Virus record (IMG/VR): IMGVR_UViG_3300042898_001927 | Length of the DNA stretch: 64,000 nucleotides | DNA from: a virus | Lineage: Duplodnaviria; Heunggongvirae; Uroviricota; Caudoviricetes | Reading direction: 5' to 3' (one strand) | Shown: piece after piece, positions 1,379 through 25,038 of the stretch | Position numbering within the stretch: the first letter of the stretch is position 1 | How the letters are laid out: the number at the start of each line of letters is the position of its first letter | Translations under genes and position numbers: made by a program | Notes under the pieces: model-generated | Seen by the model: the letters and a program-made list of their open reading frames with translations, nothing else | The model's database searches: none | Told to the model about the DNA's origin: nothing

Positions 1379-2176
1379 TCACTTGTTCATCATCAGTGCT
1401 GTGAAGTTGCTTGGCACTACAATAGTCTGTACCTTGCCGTTCTTAATACCTTCGGAGATATTCAGCATGGCCTGTGCTTCCATGAACTTGATAGAACTGG
1501 CGCTGTTATTAGCCAATGCTGCCATACGTCGGCTTTCAGCTTCAGCAGTCTTAACTTCAACTTCCTTCTGCTTCAATTCGTTCTTACTACGAACCAATGC
1601 ATTGGCACTTTCAACAACTGTGTCGCTAGGTACAACATTACGAATCAACACTTGACTAATCATAATAGTACCGTCCAACTTTTCCTCTGCCAAGTTGCGA
1701 ACGATTTCATCCTGGATGAACTTTTCCATTTCGCTACGCTTGTCAGCCATGTCCAATGCTTCGTACTTTCGTGCTGCCTTGTAGATAGCGTTACGAGCAT
1801 TTTGAACAATGTAGTTGTACATCACATAGGTATCACCCTTCATCTCAGCGTGGAACGCCTTGTTCTTGGTACTGTACAATTCTGCCACTTGTTGCGGATT
1901 GATGTTATAAACAACCACAGCATCCAAGTCTTTCATTGTGCTGTTATCAGCAGCCACAGGAGTCATGTCATTCAGCGCAACATTAACGTCCTTGATAGGG
2001 AATGTAAGCACATCACCGATGAATGTTTGGTTGAACGAACCAGGCAGCAACTCACCTGGCTGTACCTGTTTATCAAAACCAACTCGCACACCGACCTCAC
2101 CAGTCTCAATTCGAGTACAAGCACTAGTCAGTGCAACTGCGGCCACGACCAAACCAACTTTAATAAAACGCATCAT
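1379..2176 (-). CDS. SPFH/band-7 (prohibitin/HflC-like) lipoprotein
   Basis: 265 aa. The N-terminus MMRFIKVGLVVAAVALTSAC is a signal peptide with a lipobox Cys. The body is SPFH-like with an alternating charged coiled-coil C-terminus (EVEVKTAEAESRRMAALAN). Confidence 0.75.
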   Translation of the reverse strand: MMRFIKVGLVVAAVALTSACTRIETGEVGVRVGFDKQVQPGELLPGSFNQTFIGDVLTFPIKDVNVALNDMTPVAADNSTMKDLDAVVVYNINPQQVAELYSTKNKAFHAEMKGDTYVMYNYIVQNARNAIYKAARKYEALDMADKRSEMEKFIQDEIVRNLAEEKLDGTIMISQVLIRNVVPSDTVVESANALVRSKNELKQKEVEVKTAEAESRRMAALANNSASSIKFMEAQAMLNISEGIKNGKVQTIVVPSNFTALMMNK

Positions 2177-7623: not shown

Positions 7624-8154
7624 TTACTTTGTACGGATCTTCAATTTTGCGTAGCAGTTTTGGACGCCGACGGCCTGACGAATAGCATCCTGTAGAGCAT
7701 CGTGCTTACTGCCTTTGGGCATATCTGGATCTACGCCCAAATCAAACAAGGTGCGTGTATCACGTAGTTGCCAAAAGTTCCAAGGTAAAGGTTTGCCTAA
7801 TTGACGATAGATATTTTCTATAATGACCAAGTCAAAGGTAGCACCGTGACTCCAGAATGTATCACAGCCCCATGCAAACTTGTGGAACTGGTCTATTGCA
7901 TCTACAAGCGGAATGCGATTGTCTGGACTAAATGCTTCCTCCATAATAGCAGGATCTTGCTTGCTCCACCACTCAATTGTGTTTGGATCAATTTCCCTGC
8001 CTAGCTTGTCTTGATCGTCAAGATCAATACGGAAGTACAGTTTGTCTCCGTAGCCATTACCATGTGGGTTAAAATGTACAGCACCTAAGGATAGGACAAC
8101 TGCGTTTGGGGAGACTGCCATAGTCTCCATATCGATCATAAGTGCTTTAGTCAT
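7624..8154 (-). CDS. DEDDh 3'-5' exonuclease (DnaQ/RNase T/T4 DexA-like)
   Basis: Exo I is MIDMETM, Exo II is HGATFDLVII and Exo III is HDALQDA. The start is set at Met-7 (8154) because the longer ORF start at 8172 lies upstream of the promoter -10. The start remains uncertain and the mRNA may be leaderless. Confidence 0.75.
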   Translation of the reverse strand: MTKALMIDMETMAVSPNAVVLSLGAVHFNPHGNGYGDKLYFRIDLDDQDKLGREIDPNTIEWWSKQDPAIMEEAFSPDNRIPLVDAIDQFHKFAWGCDTFWSHGATFDLVIIENIYRQLGKPLPWNFWQLRDTRTLFDLGVDPDMPKGSKHDALQDAIRQAVGVQNCYAKLKIRTK

Positions 8155-8160
8155 GCAACA

Positions 8161-8189
8161 ATTATAACACAACTAAAGAACTTTGTCAA
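8161..8189 (-). promoter_or_regulatory. Sigma70-consensus early promoter
   Basis: Read on the minus strand it is TTGACA (8184-8189), a 17-nt spacer, then TATAAT (8161-8166). It lies between the bS21 stop and the exonuclease gene. Confidence 0.65.
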
Positions 8190-8434
8190 TAGTTTTTCTT
8201 AGGTAATTCGTTATCGCGAAGCTTCTTTTGCCAACGGGCTTTGGCTGCTCCGTTTTTACGCTTTCGTTCTGTGGTGGGCTTTTCGTAGAACATTTTAGCA
8301 CGGACAGTTTCTAGCACTCCGCTGTCTTCGACTTTCTGTTTAAATTTTCTCAATGCCACATTCAATGGCAGATCACCTACGATAACTTTATTACCAACTG
8401 CTTTATTTTGTTTGCTCATTTTTCTTTTTATCAA
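8186..8434 (-). CDS. rpsU: Ribosomal protein bS21
   Basis: 82 aa. The block NVALRKFKQKVEDSGVLETVRAKMFYEKPTTERKRK aligns with bacterial S21 (FYEKPTTERKR is near-invariant). It has a basic C-terminus. The start may instead be Met-6 at 8419. Confidence 0.85.
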   Translation of the reverse strand: MIKRKMSKQNKAVGNKVIVGDLPLNVALRKFKQKVEDSGVLETVRAKMFYEKPTTERKRKNGAAKARWQKKLRDNELPKKNY

Positions 8435-9635
8435 AAATCATTATGGCAGGTTTGCCATCAATCGTATCTTTACTTATCCTAATCGAAGTCAATCCGCGTT
8501 CAACTAAATCTACGGCATCAAATTGATATGGCAGAAGTACTTTTTCAATAATGTTTTTCAATCCACGGGCATTGGTCTTTAATTCTTTTGCCTGACGTGC
8601 GATTTCTCTTAATGCAGGGGTATCAAAATCCAACTGGATACCGTCTAGCTCAAACATATATTGATATTGCTTGATGGGACTATTTTTTGTCTCTTGTAAT
8701 ATATTGACCAATTGGTCTTCTGATAGCTCATCGACATGAGTGATAAGTCCGAATCGTCCTACGAACTCAGGAATAAGGCCGAACTTAATAAGATCTTTAG
8801 TAGTCACATCTTGGAATACATCAGCATCTTTGTCAATATTTTCAACATTGGCGTGAAATCCTACAGACCGTGCGCCAGTCCGTTGCTTAATGATTTTATC
8901 AATTCCTACAAATGCACCACCGCATATAAACAATATACTCCTGGTGTCGATTTCCTGCATGTCGGAACCTGGATGCTTCCTTTTGCTAGACGAAGGGACT
9001 CTCATAATCGAGCCTTCGATCATTTTTAAAAGTGCCTGTTGGACACCTTCTCCACTTACATCTCGGGTAATACTTACGTTTTCACCCTTTCGACTAATCT
9101 TATCAATTTCATCAATATATACAATACCTCTTGCAGCTTTTTCTAAGTCACCATCTGCTTCAGATATCAACCGAGTAAGAATGCTTTCAACGTCGTCACC
9201 TACGTATCCTGCTTCTGTAATACCGGTTGCATCGCATATGGCAAAAGGCAAGTCCAAATATTGTGCAATTTTTCGAGCCATCATAGTTTTTCCACAACCA
9301 GTAGGCCCTAGTAACAGCACATTAGTTTTTTCTAATTCAATATCAGTGCTAGGATTATTAATCCTTTTGAAATGCTGGCTAACTGCTACGCTTAAACTTA
9401 TTTTTGCATCCTCTTGACCGATAACATATTCGTCAAGGTATTCTTTTATTTTGGCAGGATTTAATAATTTTTTCTCATTTGGAAAAGTTTTTATTTTGTT
9501 ATCTTTGAGTATGTCCTCACATAACTCAACACAGTCATTGCATATTGCGGCATTGTCGCCTACAATGAGTTTCTCAACCTCATCCTTGCTTTTCCCACAA
9601 AAATCACACTTGTGATCGCTGTCCGATTTTGTCAT
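8403..9635 (-). CDS. clpX: ClpX-like AAA+ unfoldase
   Basis: 410 aa. The N-terminal C4 zinc-binding domain is CDFCGKS...CNDCVEL. Walker A is GPTGCGKT and Walker B is IVYIDEIDKI. The ClpX-specific blocks ITRDVSGEGVQQALLKMIEG and FGLIPEFVGR are present, plus sensor-2. Confidence 0.9.
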   Translation of the reverse strand: MTKSDSDHKCDFCGKSKDEVEKLIVGDNAAICNDCVELCEDILKDNKIKTFPNEKKLLNPAKIKEYLDEYVIGQEDAKISLSVAVSQHFKRINNPSTDIELEKTNVLLLGPTGCGKTMMARKIAQYLDLPFAICDATGITEAGYVGDDVESILTRLISEADGDLEKAARGIVYIDEIDKISRKGENVSITRDVSGEGVQQALLKMIEGSIMRVPSSSKRKHPGSDMQEIDTRSILFICGGAFVGIDKIIKQRTGARSVGFHANVENIDKDADVFQDVTTKDLIKFGLIPEFVGRFGLITHVDELSEDQLVNILQETKNSPIKQYQYMFELDGIQLDFDTPALREIARQAKELKTNARGLKNIIEKVLLPYQFDAVDLVERGLTSIRISKDTIDGKPAIMIFDKKKNEQTK

Positions 9636-12845: not shown

Positions 12846-13850
12846 TTATTTGATTTGTGTCCAAACACGCTCACGGATCTGCTTTGTTAATGCGTCCGGC
12901 AATGCTACATAGTCTAAGTCTGCGGCATCTTTCTTACCATTCTTAAATGCCCAATCAAAGAACTTTAACACTTCATCGCTGTTGGCTTTGTTAGCAGGTG
13001 TCTTATACATGATGATAAAACTTGCTGAACTTACTGGCCATGCATTAGGATTCTTTTGATCCACAATACTTAATCCCATACCAGGAACTGAGAACCAATC
13101 AGCGCCATCTGCAGCCGAGGCAAATGTTAGATCATCTGGGCTAACATACCGGCCACTCTTGTTTTGTAGTTGTAGGAATGTCATGTTGTTTTTCTTAACA
13201 TAAGCATACTCTACATAACCGATTGAACCTTTGATACGGTTCACGTTGGCCGCCACACCTTCGTTGCCTTTGCCACCCACTGAACTAGCAGCCGGCCATT
13301 TGATTGTGGCACCACGACCTGCACGTTGTAACCACTCTGGGCTGACTGTGGCAAGATAGTCTGTCCAGTTGAATGTAGTGCCTGAACCATCAGCACGGTG
13401 TACAACGGTGATTTCTGTGTTTGGCAATACTTTGCCAGGATTCAACGCCGCTAGTTTAGCATCATTCCAACGATTGATCGTGCCCAAGAACACTTCAGCC
13501 ATAACCGGGCCAGTGATGCGTAGCTCACCTGGTTTGAAACCATCCAAATTGATGACAGGCACAGTTCCGCCAATGATAGCAGGGAATTGAACCTGCCCCA
13601 TCTTGTCTAAGTTCTCGCCGCTTACTGGTGCGTCTGTGGCACCAAAGTCAACGGTCTTTGCATTAATTTGACGAATGCCACCGGATGATCCGATGCTTTG
13701 ATAGTTCATACCAGTACCTGTGGCTTTTTTGTAGCCCTCGGCCCACTTGGCATAGATCGGGAATGGGAAGGTAGCACCTGCCCCTGTAATGTCTGCGGCT
13801 TGTGCTGACACTGCTACAGCCGCAAATAGAATAGCAAATAATTTTTTCAC
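12846..13850 (-). CDS. pstS: Phosphate ABC transporter periplasmic substrate-binding protein PstS
   Basis: 334 aa. It has a signal peptide (MKKLFAILFAAVAVSAQA). The mature N-terminus ADITGAGATFPFPIYAKWAEGYK...YQSIGSSGGIRQI matches the PstS family. It has a GTG start with an AAGGAG RBS 7 nt upstream. Confidence 0.9.
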   Translation of the reverse strand: MKKLFAILFAAVAVSAQAADITGAGATFPFPIYAKWAEGYKKATGTGMNYQSIGSSGGIRQINAKTVDFGATDAPVSGENLDKMGQVQFPAIIGGTVPVINLDGFKPGELRITGPVMAEVFLGTINRWNDAKLAALNPGKVLPNTEITVVHRADGSGTTFNWTDYLATVSPEWLQRAGRGATIKWPAASSVGGKGNEGVAANVNRIKGSIGYVEYAYVKKNNMTFLQLQNKSGRYVSPDDLTFASAADGADWFSVPGMGLSIVDQKNPNAWPVSSASFIIMYKTPANKANSDEVLKFFDWAFKNGKKDAADLDYVALPDALTKQIRERVWTQIK

Positions 13851-16019: not shown

Positions 16020-16217
16020 TTAATTAATACGAGTATAGTTCAGTACATTGCCTGAACCATATTGGGATTCGGCAATCATTTTGGCCTGCAGATCATCGTT
16101 AGCGTTTACGCGAACATGTGCAGTTTGATATTGATTGAGACGGATCCAAACTTCGTATGTGTACATTTTAAACTTTCTTTGTCGATCGAATATTTTGAGC
16201 CTGCTTACCTTTGTCAC
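16020..16217 (-). CDS. Small hypothetical protein
   Basis: The ORF-track ORF overlaps the csp 3' end by 50 nt. The real start is probably the internal Met at 16166 ([12 protein letters not shown]..., 48 aa). Confidence 0.25.
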
Positions 16218-16377
16218 CCTCAGCTAGATCAAATTCAACTTCTTGTCCAACTGCTAGTGTCCTGTACCCTTCCATTTGGATCTGACTAAAATGTGCAAAC
16301 ACATCATCAGTTGTGCCATCTGGAACGATAAATCCAAAACCTTTTGAATTATTAAACCATTTAACTTTTCCCTGCAT
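16168..16377 (-). CDS. cspA: Cold-shock protein (CspA family)
   Basis: 69 aa. It carries the RNP1 motif KGFGFI, the RNP2-like VFAHFS, and the N-terminal [15 protein letters not shown]. Confidence 0.9.
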
Positions 16378-17606: not shown

Positions 17607-18050
17607 TTATTCCTTATCTTCTTCTTTAGGTATTTCGCATAGTGCTTCTAGAGTTTTATAATGCTGGTATGCTTTCCGGAGTGCCTCGAAGTGTTCTAAC
17701 TTGGCAGGATCCGGAGTTAGGATAGCTAGACGCTTTTCAATGGTGGTCAGCATATCTCCAAGACTACGGCCCTTCCATTTGATATCCCCTTCGAATATTG
17801 CATCTGTACTAACATGCAGGCCCGTGCTCGAAATGTTTCCTACTGTGTTACTAGTTGAGAAAACATAAGGGTTAGTGCTCCATGTTCCGTTTGCGCCTGC
17901 GCTTACAAAATAGGACCCTGCAGAGCCTGTGGCACCAATGGAGTAGTTATTCATTGAGTTGCTAATATCAATTGATATAGTGTCATTGATCAGTGACTCA
18001 TCGGATAAATCATCTACAAAGATGGTTAGATCGTCATCGGTGTTAGCCAT
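17607..18050 (-). CDS. Hypothetical protein
   Basis: ORF track, 147 aa. It has an acidic N-terminus. Confidence 0.5.
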   Translation of the reverse strand: MANTDDDLTIFVDDLSDESLINDTISIDISNSMNNYSIGATGSAGSYFVSAGANGTWSTNPYVFSTSNTVGNISSTGLHVSTDAIFEGDIKWKGRSLGDMLTTIEKRLAILTPDPAKLEHFEALRKAYQHYKTLEALCEIPKEEDKE

Positions 18051-18267
18051 TTAACTTAGCCTTTAGTTCAGTAAAGCCGCCGATCAGTTCTCCATCTAAA
18101 AAGATCTGAGGAACTGTACGAGCGGTAGGTACAGCTTCTAATAATTCTTCTTTGGTGTAACCGTCACCAATTTTCTTTTCTTCAAAGGCAATGCCTTTCT
18201 GTTTCAATAATGCCTTTGCTTGATCGCAGTAAGGGCAATGGTACTTAGACCATACAATCGCGTTCAT
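18043..18267 (-). CDS. grx: Glutaredoxin (NrdC/NrdH-like redoxin)
   Basis: 74 aa. The CPYC active site is in VWSKYHCPYCDQAK. The C-terminal TVPQIFLDGELIGG is the glutaredoxin signature. Confidence 0.85.
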   Translation of the reverse strand: MNAIVWSKYHCPYCDQAKALLKQKGIAFEEKKIGDGYTKEELLEAVPTARTVPQIFLDGELIGGFTELKAKLNG

Positions 18268-18278
18268 TTTATTTCCTT

Positions 18279-19379
18279 TTATAGATCTGGTAATTCTTCG
18301 TACTCAACTGCATCGCTCATAACGCCGATGACGTAGTTTGTACTTTCATTTTCTTGTAGAGCAGTCTGCTTCTTGTTGATATTAACATGTTTGTTGAACC
18401 AAGGAATAGGACTAAATTTAGGATGCTCCCCTTGGTACTTAATACCAATTTCCTTTAAACGTGTAAATGCAGTATAATCGACAAAGTCGCTAAGGATGGC
18501 AGCATTAAGTCCGATAACTGGACCTAACTTAAACAAGTAGGTTGCCCATTCTTTCTCTTCACGGATAACATCCATGTACATTGCATACACTTCTTCAGCA
18601 CATTCATCGACGATGGCTGCAAATCTAGGATCGTCTTTGACTACATTGTTGATTAGCCAAGCAGTCCATTCTGCGTGTAGTAACTCATCTTGTAAAATCA
18701 AACTGATGATGTTGCCATTGCCAATGTAGATCTTGTTCTCGACCATTGCCAACGATGTAGCAAAGGATACCATAAAGCGGAATGCTTCGAGGGCATAGCT
18801 GGCGTTCAAGGCTAACCAGATAGCCTTGATGTGTTCATGCTCGCTAATTTCCTCACCGACTTCCTTGCGGCAATTAATTCGATGTAGTGTTTCGTAGTAC
18901 ATACCGACACTACTGGCCATACTTACGATTGGCTCGATGTCATGAATCTTGTTAAATTCTTCTTTAGGTACGCCATAGACATTACGAATAATGTGACTGT
19001 AAGATTTTGAGTGAATATTTGTTTCAAAGAAACTCCAATTAGATACTAGTGCTTCTAGTTCCGGGATTGAGATAACAGGACTGAATACCTGATTAGGTGC
19101 TCGTCCTTGAATACTGTCCAAGGCTGTTTGACGCAGTAGGTTGCTGGTAAAGATATGTTTTACTGCATCGCTAGATTCTTTATGATCCATTTTGTCTTTG
19201 GTAAGACTGATTTCTTCTGGGACCCAAAAGAAGCCACGTGCTAGTTCTTCATACTTGGCAATCTTAGGATACTTAACTTCTTCAAATCGTTGCACAGTGA
19301 CAGGACCAGCAGGATCTAAAAACATTTTTCGTTTTAGATAGTTTGTTTGCTTACTTAAATTATATTGTTCTTTACTCAT
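18279..19379 (-). CDS. nrdB: Ribonucleotide reductase class Ia small subunit
   Basis: 366 aa. It is ferritin-like with di-iron ligands (FFWVPEE...; paired EXXH helices) and has the C-terminal acidic tail used for docking R1. Confidence 0.9.
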   Translation of the reverse strand: MSKEQYNLSKQTNYLKRKMFLDPAGPVTVQRFEEVKYPKIAKYEELARGFFWVPEEISLTKDKMDHKESSDAVKHIFTSNLLRQTALDSIQGRAPNQVFSPVISIPELEALVSNWSFFETNIHSKSYSHIIRNVYGVPKEEFNKIHDIEPIVSMASSVGMYYETLHRINCRKEVGEEISEHEHIKAIWLALNASYALEAFRFMVSFATSLAMVENKIYIGNGNIISLILQDELLHAEWTAWLINNVVKDDPRFAAIVDECAEEVYAMYMDVIREEKEWATYLFKLGPVIGLNAAILSDFVDYTAFTRLKEIGIKYQGEHPKFSPIPWFNKHVNINKKQTALQENESTNYVIGVMSDAVEYEELPDL

Positions 19380-19758
19380 TTGTGTGTTTCTTTCTATAGT
19401 CTTCTACTGCGGCTTTAATTGCATCTTCGGCTAGAATACTGCAATGTATCTTAACTGGGGGCAATGCTAGTTCTTCAGCAATTTGGCTATTACGAATGTG
19501 ACTAGCATCATCCACATGCATTCCTTTAACCATCTCAGTGACAAGACTGGAGCTGGCGATTGCTGAACCACATCCATATGTCTTGAAACGAGCATCTCTA
19601 ATAATACCATTTTCATCTACCTTTATCTGTAGTTTCATTACATCACCGCAGGCAGGGGCACCGACCATTCCAGTACCTACTCCTTCTTCGTCTTTAGCAA
19701 AGCTACCTACGTTACGAGGATTCTCATAGTGGTCAATAACTTTATCTGAATAGGCCAT
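19372..19758 (-). CDS. iscU: IscU/NifU-type Fe-S cluster scaffold protein
   Basis: 128 aa. The three conserved Cys are present (GAPACGDVMKL, KTYGCGSAIASS, HCSILAEDAIKAA). The LPPVK motif is also present. The gene overlaps nrdA and nrdB at both ends. Confidence 0.85.
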   Translation of the reverse strand: MAYSDKVIDHYENPRNVGSFAKDEEGVGTGMVGAPACGDVMKLQIKVDENGIIRDARFKTYGCGSAIASSSLVTEMVKGMHVDDASHIRNSQIAEELALPPVKIHCSILAEDAIKAAVEDYRKKHTNE

Positions 19759-22118
19759 TATAGTTTACATGCCTCGCAGTCGGCATCGTCGTACAGAGTT
19801 ACATTATCAACAGCATTAACATATGATGGAGGAGCAACTACTAATGTATTGGTAGTTGTTACACCTTCCTTAGCGCCGACTTTGTTAATTAAGCTATAGT
19901 ATATAGTCTTGATACCCCATTTGTAAGCCAGCATTAAGTTTTTGGCAATTAAAGTTCCGGGGACCTTGCGATCCTTTTGTGGATCTAAACTGGTAAAGTG
20001 TGCAGGATTGTAGAATGTGTTAGTGCTCAAACTTTGATCAATGTAGGCTGCAAGTACTGCGGCAGTTTTCAAATAATCAACACAGTCCTTTTGATCCCAC
20101 ATCAACTGATAACGATTCTTTAGACGTTTGTATTCTGGTACTACCTGTACAAAAGACCCTGCCTTGGATTCCTTAACACTGATAAGTTCCATCGGCATTT
20201 CAATACCGTTGGTACTGTTAAGCACGACCGAACTAGATTCAACTGGAGCAACTGCCATTAAGGTAGCGTTACGAATACCATACTTTTTCATCATCGCACG
20301 TAGAGGTTCCCAATCCATGCTTGGTGTAAAGTCTGTTAGTTCATCTACTCCTTTATTTCTACGCTCCCAAGGAAACACTCCCTTACCATAATAAGTATGC
20401 TGACTACGTCCGCATGGCCCACGTTCTTGGGCAAGCTCGACACTTGTTTCAGTTAGGTAGTATGCTTGATGTTCCATCCAACGTTTGACTTCGGCAAGAG
20501 CATCCTTCTCGCCGTATTTAAAACTACGCTTGGCATGCCAGTAGGCCAAGTTAGTAATGCCAACACCTAACGGTTCAAATTCACTATTGGCCATCTTTGA
20601 CTGTACGCTTAAGAAATCTTGATATGATAACAAGTTACTCAAGCTACGGACCAACACACGGCAGGCTTTACGCATCTCTTGCGGATTGCGGAACGCACCC
20701 CAGTTGATTGACCCAAGAGTGCAAAGAGCAATTCGTCCCTCTGCATCTTCAATTCTCTGGAAAGGACGGGTGGGTAAAAGTATCTCTTGGCATAGGTTTG
20801 ATTGATATATTGGATCCAAGGTTGTATCAAACGGGCCCTGGTTGATAACGTTGTCGATGTTGACAAAATATATGCGCCCAGTGTCAGTGCGCTCTTTAAG
20901 TATTCCAGCTTTGAATATCGCATCCGCTGATACAACTTTCTTTTTCTTTGTCTTATCTTGCTCATACTGTAGATACAATTTTTCAAACAGGCCGCTATCA
21001 CGATAGTAGGCTTCGTACAAGTCCGGAACTTCTGCAGGGTCAAACAAGCTCATCATTTCGCCATTCTTATAGCGGTTCCAGAACATCTTGCTGACTACTA
21101 CTGAATAGTCCATTTGACGCACACGAGTTTCTTCAGTACCTTGGTTGTTCTTTAGAACAATAAGATCTTCGAACTGATAATGCCAGACGGGAAAAGTCAC
21201 CGTACAACTTGCATTACGGATTCCACCTTGGCTGCAACTGCGAAGGTCTGCGAACCACTTTTTCAAGAAAGGGATCATTCCAGTATGCTTGATCTCACCG
21301 TTGCGAATTGGTGCACCTAACGGTCTGATTCTGCCTATTTCAAGGCCGATTCCGGCTCGTTTTGAAGCATATTTGGCCATCATTTCGCCTGCTGCGAAGA
21401 TACTATCCAGTGTGTCATCACTGCTGATCAATACACATGAACTGAATTGTTTTGTTGTGGTTCCTAGGCCGGCGAGAACAGGTGTAGCTAATGTGAAGTG
21501 TCCGTCACTAGCTGACTCGTAGTATTCCTTAACCCACTTTAATCTTTTATCTTTAGGTTCGTTATGAAACGCTGTTGCTGCGGCAATTGCATAGCGAACC
21601 TGAGGTGTTTCGTAGATTTGACCAGTAGCACGGTTCTGTACCAGATACTTTTCTGCTAACTGTGCAATGGCTGCATAGGTATAGTTTTCATCCTTGGCAT
21701 GATCGATGAATAGATCAATGATATCCCATTCTTCTTTAGAGTACCAGTCTAGCAGTTCGCTAGTGTACATGCCTAGATCTACATTCTTTTTAACAATATC
21801 ATACAATGCTGGAGGATCATAATCACCATAGACCTCTTTGCGTAACATGCTAACTTTTTGACGACCTGCTACATACTGATAATTGACATTATTAATTTCT
21901 GGATTTTCAGATTCGTCAATTAAATCTACCATGGCCTTGAGCAAGAGCTCGTCTATGGTTTCGGTAGTCATACCGTCGTGGAGTTCAATTTGAGCTTTAA
22001 TCTCAATCATCGAAGGACTTACTCCATCGATACCCCTGCAGCCGTAAGCTACTTGTCTCTGTATTTTTGCGATATCTAACGGAACGCGATGTCCATTACG
22101 CTTGACCACTGTGATCAT
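19758..22118 (-). CDS. nrdA: Ribonucleotide reductase class Ia large subunit
   Basis: 786 aa. The N-terminal ATP-cone is VVKRNGHRVPLDIAKIQ. The catalytic region and the C-terminal CEAC (CX2C) shuttle pair are present. Confidence 0.95.
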   Translation of the reverse strand: MITVVKRNGHRVPLDIAKIQRQVAYGCRGIDGVSPSMIEIKAQIELHDGMTTETIDELLLKAMVDLIDESENPEINNVNYQYVAGRQKVSMLRKEVYGDYDPPALYDIVKKNVDLGMYTSELLDWYSKEEWDIIDLFIDHAKDENYTYAAIAQLAEKYLVQNRATGQIYETPQVRYAIAAATAFHNEPKDKRLKWVKEYYESASDGHFTLATPVLAGLGTTTKQFSSCVLISSDDTLDSIFAAGEMMAKYASKRAGIGLEIGRIRPLGAPIRNGEIKHTGMIPFLKKWFADLRSCSQGGIRNASCTVTFPVWHYQFEDLIVLKNNQGTEETRVRQMDYSVVVSKMFWNRYKNGEMMSLFDPAEVPDLYEAYYRDSGLFEKLYLQYEQDKTKKKKVVSADAIFKAGILKERTDTGRIYFVNIDNVINQGPFDTTLDPIYQSNLCQEILLPTRPFQRIEDAEGRIALCTLGSINWGAFRNPQEMRKACRVLVRSLSNLLSYQDFLSVQSKMANSEFEPLGVGITNLAYWHAKRSFKYGEKDALAEVKRWMEHQAYYLTETSVELAQERGPCGRSQHTYYGKGVFPWERRNKGVDELTDFTPSMDWEPLRAMMKKYGIRNATLMAVAPVESSSVVLNSTNGIEMPMELISVKESKAGSFVQVVPEYKRLKNRYQLMWDQKDCVDYLKTAAVLAAYIDQSLSTNTFYNPAHFTSLDPQKDRKVPGTLIAKNLMLAYKWGIKTIYYSLINKVGAKEGVTTTNTLVVAPPSYVNAVDNVTLYDDADCEACKL

Positions 22119-22152: not shown

Positions 22153-22587
22153 TTACCTTGGGACGGTAACTTCTATTAAATTTTCAAGTCTAAATGAGTC
22201 GGTCAATTCTTGTCCAGAGATTGGTCCATTATCATCATAGTTTATAATCCATTTATCATCAACATATACTAGATTATACTGCCTCGTACGATTAGAATCA
22301 ACTAGTGTTCGCAATTCAATTTTGCTATCCTTAAATTTTTTTGTCAATTTAAGCGTCCAGCCGATCATTAGTGCTTTGGTAAAATCATCATAGATGTTAT
22401 CTGCAATAATTTCCCAGGGGCTGGGCCAGCTTTGTTGATAATGAGGATCAATGTTCCTATTGTGTGGGGTGAAGGGAGCCCGGTGCCAAAAATCCCAAAC
22501 GGTCTGTAAGGGGTCTGCTGACTCGTCTAACTCTCTTCTATGATTTGCCCACTCTGTTAATCTACTATCTACAGGTTGGTTAAACAT
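22153..22587 (-). CDS. Hypothetical protein
   Basis: ORF track, 144 aa, Trp-rich. Confidence 0.5.
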   Translation of the reverse strand: MFNQPVDSRLTEWANHRRELDESADPLQTVWDFWHRAPFTPHNRNIDPHYQQSWPSPWEIIADNIYDDFTKALMIGWTLKLTKKFKDSKIELRTLVDSNRTRQYNLVYVDDKWIINYDDNGPISGQELTDSFRLENLIEVTVPR

Positions 22588-24345: not shown

Positions 24346-25038
24346 TTATAATTTGTAGTACTCTTCGACTTTGCTCAACCACATGTCTTCGTACTTGTTA
24401 AAATTATCTTTGTTTAGATCAAATTGCTGATATTGGAAGTCTCTGCTACACATAAAAATAACACCTCTACGAATATCAGTCTTATAGACTTCATTATGTG
24501 CTAAGATATAGGCAACTAGCTGTACATAGTAGTCTTCAACCCATTCTGCCTTCTTTGGTTTGTTAGTTTGTTTGTGGTCGCAAACTGCTGGTTCGCCTTC
24601 AAATACTCCTACTAGGTCAGTGGTACCGCTGTATAGTCCAGGAAAGTACAATGACTGTTCCATAGCCCATACTTCGTTCATTTTGCTTAGACCGTTTTCA
24701 ATAATAACATCTGCCATTGCGTTAGCCTGTACATGCACAGGGTTATTGCCCGGCTGTCGCTGTTCGCCGATTAAGAAGCGTTCTAAGTTGGCGTGCATAG
24801 CTGTACCTACTCCTGCGGCTTCCTTAGTGATCTGTGCAGCATTAGCTTCACCTACTCGCTTACGCCATTCGATCAAGTGTGTTTGATCTTTAGTAGCGCC
24901 AAGGATAGTAGTAACGCTAGGTAGTTTTTCACCGTCAGGTGTTTGATAAACTCGTTTCCGTGTTACCGGATCATTTATCTGCTGACAATTTTTGTATTGG
25001 AATCGTTCGATGAACGGAGGAGGAGTATAAACTTGCAT
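24346..25038 (-). CDS. PD-(D/E)XK nuclease, RecB/Cas4-like family
   Basis: 230 aa. Motif II is TTDLVGVF, motif III is CDHK, and the QhxxY motif (YVQLVAYILAH) follows. Confidence 0.55.
   Translation of the reverse strand: MQVYTPPPFIERFQYKNCQQINDPVTRKRVYQTPDGEKLPSVTTILGATKDQTHLIEWRKRVGEANAAQITKEAAGVGTAMHANLERFLIGEQRQPGNNPVHVQANAMADVIIENGLSKMNEVWAMEQSLYFPGLYSGTTDLVGVFEGEPAVCDHKQTNKPKKAEWVEDYYVQLVAYILAHNEVYKTDIRRGVIFMCSRDFQYQQFDLNKDNFNKYEDMWLSKVEEYYKL

Follow-up and report, generated by a model that had tools for sequence, protein, structure and literature searches.

An apparently functional IscU scaffold gene, probably host-derived, in the nrdA-nrdB junction of a T4-like phage ribonucleotide reductase operon

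In the stretch of phage DNA analysed here (64,000 nucleotides, referred to as the window), an apparently complete and functional gene for the Fe-S cluster scaffold IscU lies between the genes of the two subunits of a class I ribonucleotide reductase (RNR). Judging from sequence comparisons, it is probably a functional scaffold of host origin belonging to a known class of auxiliary metabolic genes (AMGs), carried as cargo at a site that is a hotspot of recombination and insertion in T4-like phages. Both this class of genes and the hotspot are already known; the pairing of IscU with RNR, however, recurs in unrelated phage RNR operons, and no description of this was found in the literature searched.

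Table 1. Features of the RNR operon and its surroundings, in positions of the window
Feature	Position	Strand	Description and basis
147-aa ORF 3' of grx	17607-18050	-	co-oriented; overlaps grx by 8 nt
grx	18043-18267	-	dithiol glutaredoxin, 74 aa; PF00462, active site CPYC
nrdB	18279-19379	-	class I RNR beta, 366 aa; PF00268
iscU	19372-19758	-	Fe-S cluster scaffold, 128 aa; ORF and profile matches
nrdA	19758-22118	-	class Ia RNR alpha, 786 aa; ORF and profile matches
144-aa conserved ORF directly 5' of nrdA	22153-22587	-	backbone marker
putative recombination patch, ~0.85 kb	19280-20120	.	iscU at centre; DNA identity and dS comparison

The order nrdA, iscU, nrdB and grx, with overlaps at both iscU junctions, had been proposed in an initial annotation and agrees with the ORFs on the minus strand (Table 1). 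As read directly from the sequence, the nrdA stop and the iscU start share one nucleotide (TAATG, base 19758), and the iscU stop and the nrdB start overlap by 8 nt at 19372-19379 (ATGAGTAA). The gap between nrdB and grx measures 11 nt, with AAGGA located 5' of the grx start. A well-placed Shine-Dalgarno sequence is missing at the start of iscU, where the nearest GAGG lies 15 nt upstream. No terminator-like sites were found on the minus strand within 18043-22118, and a scan for sigma-70 promoters was uninformative (34 sites, with 22.7 ± 4 expected). Since neither a promoter nor a terminator belongs to iscU alone, and since both ends of the gene overlap with nrdA and nrdB, it should be co-transcribed and co-translated with the RNR subunits, and its translational coupling into the operon is supported on these grounds.

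The surroundings of the operon are those of a phage, with rIIA, rIIB and tail-fibre genes in the window. The gene order exo, beta-helix, up144 (the 144-aa ORF) and nrdA is common to related phages, and L013, L073 and L163, the closest relatives, also keep the 147-aa ORF 3' of grx. The collection indexes an identical copy of the IscU protein in 29 blocks, and 17 contigs were read. At all six places displayed, on independent contigs from several metagenome samples, the order is again nrdA-iscU-nrdB, with grx present wherever the contig extends that far; the arrangement is no assembly artefact.

The product of iscU passes the curated cutoff of the TIGR01999 equivalog (223.4 bits, cutoff 192.4) and also matches PF01592 (NifU_N; E = 4.4e-53) and PHROG 8429, 'NifU-like Fe-S cluster assembly protein' (2.3e-40). 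It aligns without gaps over residues 1-125 to the IscU proteins of E. coli (2L4X) and H. influenzae (1Q48), solved structures that are 77% identical to it, and its N-terminus is nearly identical to that of E. coli IscU. The cluster ligands C37, D39, C63, H105 and C106 are all kept, as is the HscA-binding motif LPPVK at residues 99-103. The earlier reading of a full-length protein with its three cysteines and LPPVK intact was thus borne out, and the truncation relative to functional IscU that had been considered against it is not present. Without exception, the viral IscUs compared (177/177) have all ten key residues. Viral iscU is under strong purifying selection, the median dN being 0.135 and the median dS 1.36 (dN/dS ~0.1).

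Identity to the window protein is 79-86% for the 80 closest bacterial IscUs, which belong to Betaproteobacteria (Burkholderiales, Rhodocyclales). All but one of them adjoin isc-operon genes, the exception (L119) having no neighbours detected, and most of these loci carry the full iscR-iscS-iscU-iscA-hscB-hscA set. The suggested capture of the gene from a host isc operon is supported by these comparisons. It also agrees with the IscU phylogeny proposed as a check, in which viral IscUs group together beside those of Betaproteobacteria, in a tree too shallow to tell single from multiple acquisitions. The label 'marine' could not be retained: besides the betaproteobacterial affiliation of the nearest bacterial IscUs, the names of some of the metagenome-assembled genomes that carry them hint at a lake or groundwater origin. 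Megablast detected no counterpart of the operon among deposited phages, and the nearest RNRs of cultured phages are those of Xanthomonas, Ralstonia and Stenotrophomonas phages. The IscUs listed under 'Acinetobacter phage MD-2021a' were rejected as close phage homologs, since this record represents bacterial chromosomal DNA that includes a complete isc operon.

Partners of IscU were searched for by tblastn, and IscA, IscS, IscR, HscBA and Fdx were all absent from the 64-kb window. Among the 80 closest viral loci, none carries iscS, iscR, hscB or fdx (0/80), and 68 have an IscA-type carrier next to IscU. In relatives, an Fe/Mn SOD adjoins IscU-IscA, and radical-SAM genes adjoin IscU, neighbours in keeping with a broader theme of Fe-S metabolism or oxidative stress. 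Matches to HscA in viral relatives were not accepted as a chaperone of IscU, the sequence being DnaK-like as judged by eye. With respect to possible clients, all window ORFs were without radical-SAM, ferredoxin or 4Fe-4S Cys motifs, and Pfam searches of ten further window ORFs gave no Fe-S client. A tblastn search with an approximate YfaE query detected no YfaE-like ferredoxin in the window or in the viral loci. A PD-(D/E)XK exonuclease (24346-25038) was considered as a Cas4-like Fe-S client and discarded, as it has only three scattered Cys.

Because the window lacks a desulfurase, HscA/HscB and a ferredoxin while all ligand and LPPVK residues of the scaffold are kept, we infer that the phage protein uses host machinery. 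Most likely it would join IscS-HscBA-Fdx of the host as an additional scaffold and thereby sustain the supply of [2Fe-2S] and [4Fe-4S] clusters to Fe-S enzymes of host and phage. Such an extra IscU may be of benefit when host isc expression fails or when clusters are damaged during infection, and its location in the junction would set timing and dosage of iscU together with the genes of nucleotide metabolism.

In the window, NrdA consists of ATP-cone, Ribonuc_red_lgN and lgC domains, passes the cutoff of NF006578 for class Ia alpha subunits (815.8 bits, cutoff 813), and has the NxCxE finger loop (NLCQE at 441) and the C-terminal redox pair CEAC. NrdB scores 297 with NF006576, under the cutoff of 346. 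It has the metal-ligand Asp, ELLH as the second E-x-x-H, the radical Tyr within IHSKSY, and YVIG at its C-terminus. Its first metal motif reads E-T-N-I-H, a one-residue insertion compared with E-x-x-H, and the metal is not readable from sequence. This odd E-x-x-x-H motif was considered as a reason for the presence of IscU and rejected: the motif occurs in Xanthomonas phage X1, which lacks IscU, and IscU is present in a lineage whose motif is the canonical one. Grx is presumed to be the reductant of the phage RNR.

In IMG/VR, 27 distinct contigs have an IscU gene exactly between nrdA and nrdB. They represent three RNR lineages: the type of the window, the type of phage C48C1, and a third that shares about 50% identity with the latter. 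Between the window type and the C48C1 type, NrdA is 24% and NrdB 22% identical. The gene as such is widespread, each IscU-seeded scan having found more than 590 viral stretches, and its position shifts across the NrdB tree. Where IscU is found outside the junction, 15 of the 23 loci with full flanks in the first sample still have it within about 6 kb of RNR; among relatives with such placements the distance is 0-5.6 kb, to either side of RNR. Fully flanked IscU loci without a nearby RNR numbered 8 and 12 in the two samples, and in the complete genome of phage C48C1 (OQ984149) the distance to RNR is 32 kb. The RNR also occurs without IscU: relatives with a 90% identical NrdB (L252/L253) have an empty junction and no IscU, and the related RNR of Xanthomonas phage X1 is likewise without it. 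The view that iscU is a common, unlinked auxiliary gene holds in part, as it is common and variable in position; yet its recurrent linkage to RNR in three lineages contradicts the term 'unlinked'.

The content of the junction was surveyed in two NrdB-seeded samples of loci, one for the window type and one for a second RNR lineage. It was empty in 33 and 53 loci, respectively, held other cargo in 33 and 19, and held IscU in 6 and 7, so that about half of the window-type loci and a third of those of the second lineage carry an insert. The cargo families are many and mutually unrelated, and IscU is the commonest single one in both lineages sampled. In the junctions of some relatives, weak matches to HNH (E = 0.0017) and SegE GIY-YIG (E = 5e-5) endonucleases were obtained. 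The closest relatives without IscU have an 8-nt spacer where the window has the bare 387-nt iscU ORF. At this point it should be noted that two observations are left unexplained by a pure hotspot model by itself, namely the first rank of IscU among the cargo of two lineages sharing 22-24% identity and the closeness of off-junction IscU to RNR in 15/23 loci.

Traces of exchange are visible around the gene. DNA of the patch centred on iscU is 92-100% identical to that of the loci L164-L168, compared with 70-83% for the rest of nrdA and nrdB. Against the same loci, iscU has a dS of 0.025-0.077, whereas nrdA reaches about 0.8-1.2 and nrdB exceeds 2, and nonsynonymous changes within the patch are zero. 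In this respect the patch resembles a co-conversion tract. [quoted passage not shown] The junction of the window contains no endonuclease gene, iscU being its sole occupant, and any homing would therefore need to act in trans. The placement of iscU probably arose, or spreads, by homologous recombination or endonuclease-driven co-conversion over the conserved nrdA 3' and nrdB 5' ends. The placement itself is real, but to call it 'unexpected', as was done initially, is overstated: phage IscU is a described AMG class, the junction is a known insertion site, and with YfaE there is a precedent.

A different role, which we consider rather unlikely, would be that of an accessory dedicated to RNR: IscU, together with IscA and SOD in relatives, would assemble or maintain the di-iron tyrosyl-radical cofactor of NrdB, and selection would keep iscU in or beside the RNR operon. 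Possible routes are the maturation of a YfaE-type ferredoxin re-reducing met-NrdB, electron donation by IscU itself, or delivery of Fe(II) to apo-NrdB. The junction copies on 27 contigs in three RNR lineages, the leading share of IscU among single cargo genes, its proximity to RNR in other relatives and the tight translational coupling to both subunits are in favour of such a role, and precedents are given by E. coli YfaE and by the IscU-like domain of class II RNR (PMC9669993). This evidence is, however, positional throughout, and many unrelated genes occupy the same slot; L252/L253 and Xanthomonas phage X1 run the same RNR without IscU, the C48C1 gene and the 8 + 12 loci mentioned above lie far from RNR or have none nearby, and neither the window nor the viral loci yielded a ferredoxin. 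To our knowledge, the loading of NrdB is not among the documented roles of IscU. Slightly more doubtful is the extended form of this proposal, in which the phage protein, joined by IscA and SOD in relatives, is dedicated to assembling and maintaining the class I RNR metallocofactor and gives iron or an electron directly or via a host [2Fe-2S] ferredoxin. The recurrence of the order nrdA-iscU-nrdB in unrelated RNR lineages would then reflect selection for coupling, and the locus would be a living example of the adjacency behind the class II fusion.

It is improbable that the phage hijacks the sulfur flux of its host, with surplus IscU competing for host IscS and diverting sulfur from TusA-dependent tRNA thiolation or other clients instead of supplying clusters; the outcome would be altered translation, for example in frameshifting, or a loss of host functions. 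Competition between IscU and TusA for IscS does occur in E. coli, where it alters lambda infection via tRNA thiolation and frameshifting (PMC3296357), and the phage has an IscU without IscS. However, the ISC pathway protected the host in the case of lambda, so that the sign of the effect is uncertain. The IscA-type carrier in most relatives and the radical-SAM clients in some fit productive cluster delivery and not mere titration. Furthermore, a decoy would need the IscS-binding surface only, whereas all 177 viral copies keep D39, H105 and LPPVK, which are required for releasing the cluster and handing it over to the chaperone. Least probable of all is a neutral hitch-hiker spread by recombination or co-conversion without benefit to the phage, or a product of contamination or misassembly: the co-conversion-like patch, the diverse cargo of the junction and the bacterial nature of some 'phage' database records with IscU would suit it, but dN/dS and the lack of nonsynonymous changes in the patch, the functional residues kept in 177 viral copies with no pseudogenised or ligand-mutated copy seen among them, the more than 590 viral stretches per scan, the identical arrangement on independent contigs, and a GC content of iscU (0.416) similar to that of the neighbouring genes all speak against it.

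The interpretation of iscU as a functional, host-derived scaffold travelling as hotspot cargo is therefore the one that we regard as probable. In bacterial class Ia NrdB, the in vivo source of iron and of the activating electron is only partly understood. The repeated occurrence of an Fe-S scaffold in phage RNR operons would offer a compact natural system for examining a link between Fe-S assembly and the biogenesis of the RNR cofactor, and nature already provides variants in which this junction contains iscU or lacks it. The locus may also bear on the domain of class II RNRs that resembles IscU. Should the link prove purely positional, the locus would still be a clear example of a hyperplastic hotspot and of co-conversion spreading a metabolic gene among diverged T4-like phages.

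Compared with bacterial IscU (E. coli 2L4X/3LVL; H. influenzae 1Q48), the phage protein has the same length, ligands and LPPVK motif. Bacterial iscU is part of iscRSUA-hscBA-fdx, whereas phage iscU stands alone between nrdA and nrdB. IscU and A-type carriers have been described as viral AMGs in T4-like environmental genomes (Nishimura 2017, PMC5332604), and HMO-2011-type phages belong to the same class (PMC9038755); in the available portions of both reports, a placement in or beside the RNR operon is not mentioned. Like the window gene, these AMGs (PHROG 8429; C48C1) are host-derived and found in T4-like phages without IscS. They are often accompanied by an IscA/ErpA-type carrier and other Fe-S-related genes, whereas the window has no carrier, and for marine genomes, SAR86/gammaproteobacterial relatives of IscU have been reported in place of betaproteobacterial ones.

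The mobE gene of T4 shares with iscU of the window the insertion site and the position inside the nrd transcription unit, and the near-identical DNA in the window reaches beyond the insert on both sides, to the nrdA 3' and nrdB 5' ends, in the manner of a co-conversion tract. However, mobE is an endonuclease cassette, whereas the cargo of the window is a metabolic gene without a nuclease domain. In E. coli, yfaE is located in the nrdAB operon. Its product is a [2Fe-2S] ferredoxin and is reported to maintain the diferric-tyrosyl cofactor of class Ia RNR. Thus, YfaE and the window IscU are both small Fe-S-related proteins encoded in a class Ia RNR operon, but YfaE is an electron carrier using a cluster, IscU is a cluster builder, and their sequences are unrelated. 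Finally, many class II RNR alpha subunits have an IscU-like domain at their C-terminus (Burnim et al. 2022, PMC9669993). In both cases an IscU fold follows the RNR catalytic subunit; in the window, the final base of the nrdA stop is also the first base of iscU. The class II domain, however, is fused, belongs to a B12-dependent RNR and has usually lost its Cys ligands, whereas the window IscU is separate, canonical and encoded in a class I operon.

The initial annotation had described an IscU gene wedged between nrdA and nrdB, in the order nrdA-iscU-nrdB-grx and with overlaps at both iscU junctions. Both parts of this description are borne out. The four minus-strand genes were each confirmed by family searches, and the nrdA stop is joined to the iscU start in TAATG and the iscU stop to the nrdB start in ATGAGTAA. 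A Shine-Dalgarno sequence is well placed for nrdA and grx, but not for iscU, which fits a putative translation of iscU by termination-reinitiation. No terminator-like sites were found on the minus strand inside the operon. Identical copies of the IscU protein occur in 29 indexed collection blocks, and at all six places displayed, from several samples (17 contigs read), the gene arrangement is the same. The nrdA-iscU-nrdB gene feature is real.

Positions of the operon and of other features in the window
Feature	Position	Strand	Remarks
SPFH/Band 7 protein	1379-2176	-	auxiliary gene
Rv2179c-like 3'-5' exoribonuclease	7624-8172	-	auxiliary gene
ClpX-like unfoldase	8403-9635	-	ClpX C4 zinc finger, AAA_2 and ClpB_D2-small domains
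PstS-like phosphate-binding protein	12846-13850	-	auxiliary gene
Cold-shock protein	16168-16377	-	auxiliary gene
grx	18043-18267	-	domain and curated-family searches
nrdB	18279-19379	-	domain and curated-family searches
iscU	19372-19758	-	domain and curated-family searches; TIGR01999
nrdA	19758-22118	-	domain and curated-family searches
Mosaic patch	roughly 20120-19280		nrdA 3' end, iscU, nrdB 5' end

The window belongs to a T4-like myovirus (rIIA, rIIB, PstS, ClpX-like ATPase, tail fibres) for which no close DNA relative was found among deposited phages; phages of Xanthomonas, Ralstonia and Stenotrophomonas have the nearest NrdA proteins (54-60% identity). NrdB scores below the cutoff of NF006576. 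Its first metal-binding motif, E-T-N-I-H at residues 119-123, has a one-residue insertion relative to E115-x-x-H118 of E. coli. This longer form recurs in all of the nearest viral NrdBs (22 of 22) and, as ETNLH, in Xanthomonas phage X1; the canonical ETIH occurs in a more distantly related lineage. No correlation of this motif with IscU was observed.

The IscU protein reaches 223.4 bits against TIGR01999 (cutoff 192.4) and aligns gap-free to its E. coli and H. influenzae counterparts; C37, D39, C63, LPPVK, H105 and C106 are kept, in agreement with the earlier reading that the cluster-ligating cysteines and LPPVK are intact. Among bacterial IscUs, the 80 nearest come from Betaproteobacteria and are 79-86% identical; isc-operon genes are neighbours of every one except L119, and in most cases the set iscR-iscS-iscU-iscA-hscB-hscA is complete. 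The viral copies cluster, with a viral nearest neighbour for 80 of 81. They are under purifying selection (median dN 0.135, dS 1.36), and ten key residues are kept in 177 of 177 near-full-length copies. In all 80 nearest viral loci iscS, iscR, hscB and fdx are absent. Taken together, these observations indicate that iscU is most likely functional and would rely on IscS, HscAB and ferredoxin of the host.

The 80 closest viral loci share a common backbone with IscU in one of three slots: 2-5.6 kb upstream of nrdA (13 loci, and in addition truncated contigs that have this backbone), between nrdA and nrdB (6 loci, plus the window) or 0-5.5 kb downstream of nrdB/grx (21 loci); RNR is absent from 40 loci. 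Where IscU is flanked by 5 kb or more on both sides (23 loci), RNR lies within 6 kb in 15 loci and none is that near in 8. The position between both genes is scattered over the NrdB tree, so IscU has changed its place more than once. A second sample, seeded with the IscU of phage C48C1 (OQ984149), revealed the exact nrdA-IscU-nrdB placement in C48C1-type RNR operons and in a lineage about 50% identical to these. Over all samples, IscU lies at the junction on 27 distinct IMG/VR contigs. Window and C48C1 share only 24% identity in NrdA and 22% in NrdB. The NrdA of C48C1 itself (L171, 23714-25708) is of the C48C1 type without ATP-cone; in pairwise alignment the C-terminal region of this type contains an apparent glutaredoxin-like segment (CPWC ... 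TVPQIYLEG). In the complete genome of C48C1, IscU is located beside replication genes and RNR 32 kb away.

An IscA-type carrier adjoins IscU in 68 of the 80 nearest viral loci; none was found in the window. A Fe/Mn superoxide dismutase (SOD) recurs beside IscU-IscA (loci L016, L027, L048, L051, L053, L068, L075, L082, L268 and L289), both away from RNR and within the nrdA-nrdB junction, which suggests an oxidative-stress or Fe-S repair module. Radical-SAM genes (cluster c53) adjoin IscU in L041, L055, L063 and L065 and are candidate phage-encoded Fe-S clients. Directly upstream of IscU, many relatives (within L003-L082, e.g. L059) encode a small secreted protein, ORF cluster c5, for which Pfam gave no match; it carries the His-rich stretch HWHHGHRYHGPVRHHGHYGH and may be metal-binding. 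An Hsp70 gene, DnaK-like by eye only and cut by the locus end, follows about 5.7 kb downstream of IscU in L008, L045 and L061. Two records of the phage collection labelled 'Acinetobacter phage MD-2021a' (L002, CAKLQH020000011.1; CAKLQF020000009.1) are bacterial chromosome and not phage; they carry housekeeping genes and a full bacterial iscRSUA-hscBA-fdx operon.

With loci sampled by NrdB and not by IscU, the junction is empty in 33 loci of the window-type lineage, holds other inserts in 33 and IscU in 6; for the C48C1-type the numbers are 53, 19 and 7. Besides IscU, the cargo comprises IscA, class II aldolase, FkbM methyltransferase, Fe/Mn SOD, 2OG-Fe(II) and Asp/Arg hydroxylases, a GATase-like protein, class V aminotransferase, 5'-nucleotidase, weak HNH and SegE-type GIY-YIG matches and several unknown families. 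At the junction of L329, the 380-aa aminotransferase-fold gene belongs to a fold family shared with cysteine desulfurases. The best-supported interpretation is that iscU is a general Fe-S supply gene, carried as cargo of a known hotspot and co-expressed with RNR. The IscA, SOD and radical-SAM neighbours in relatives favour general Fe-S maintenance over a function tied to RNR. A role specific for RNR is the less likely reading; in its favour, no other single cargo is as common as IscU in two unrelated RNR operons, and IscU mostly stays near RNR. Independent precedents for a connection of Fe-S and RNR are the YfaE ferredoxin and an unexplained IscU-like domain of class II RNRs (PMC9669993).

This class of IscU has been described before, with viral IscU and A-type carriers reported from T4-like environmental genomes (Nishimura et al. 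2017, PMC5332604) and from HMO-2011-type phages (PMC9038755), and the window IscU belongs to PHROG 8429. No description of the nrdA-iscU-nrdB arrangement was found in the literature searched, and the chief point of note is the recurrent, apparently undescribed linkage of IscU and RNR. In the nearest IscU-less relatives the junction consists of TAA, an 8-nt spacer and ATG, whereas in the window a bare iscU ORF takes the place of the spacer. The DNA of a patch of about 0.85 kb around iscU is 92-100% identical to that of contigs L164-L168; outside of it, identity of the RNR genes drops to 70-83%, with synonymous sites saturated. With iscU at its centre, this patch resembles a co-conversion tract, and it matches the co-conversion pattern given by mobE of T4, which is located in the same intergenic region (PMC2790892).
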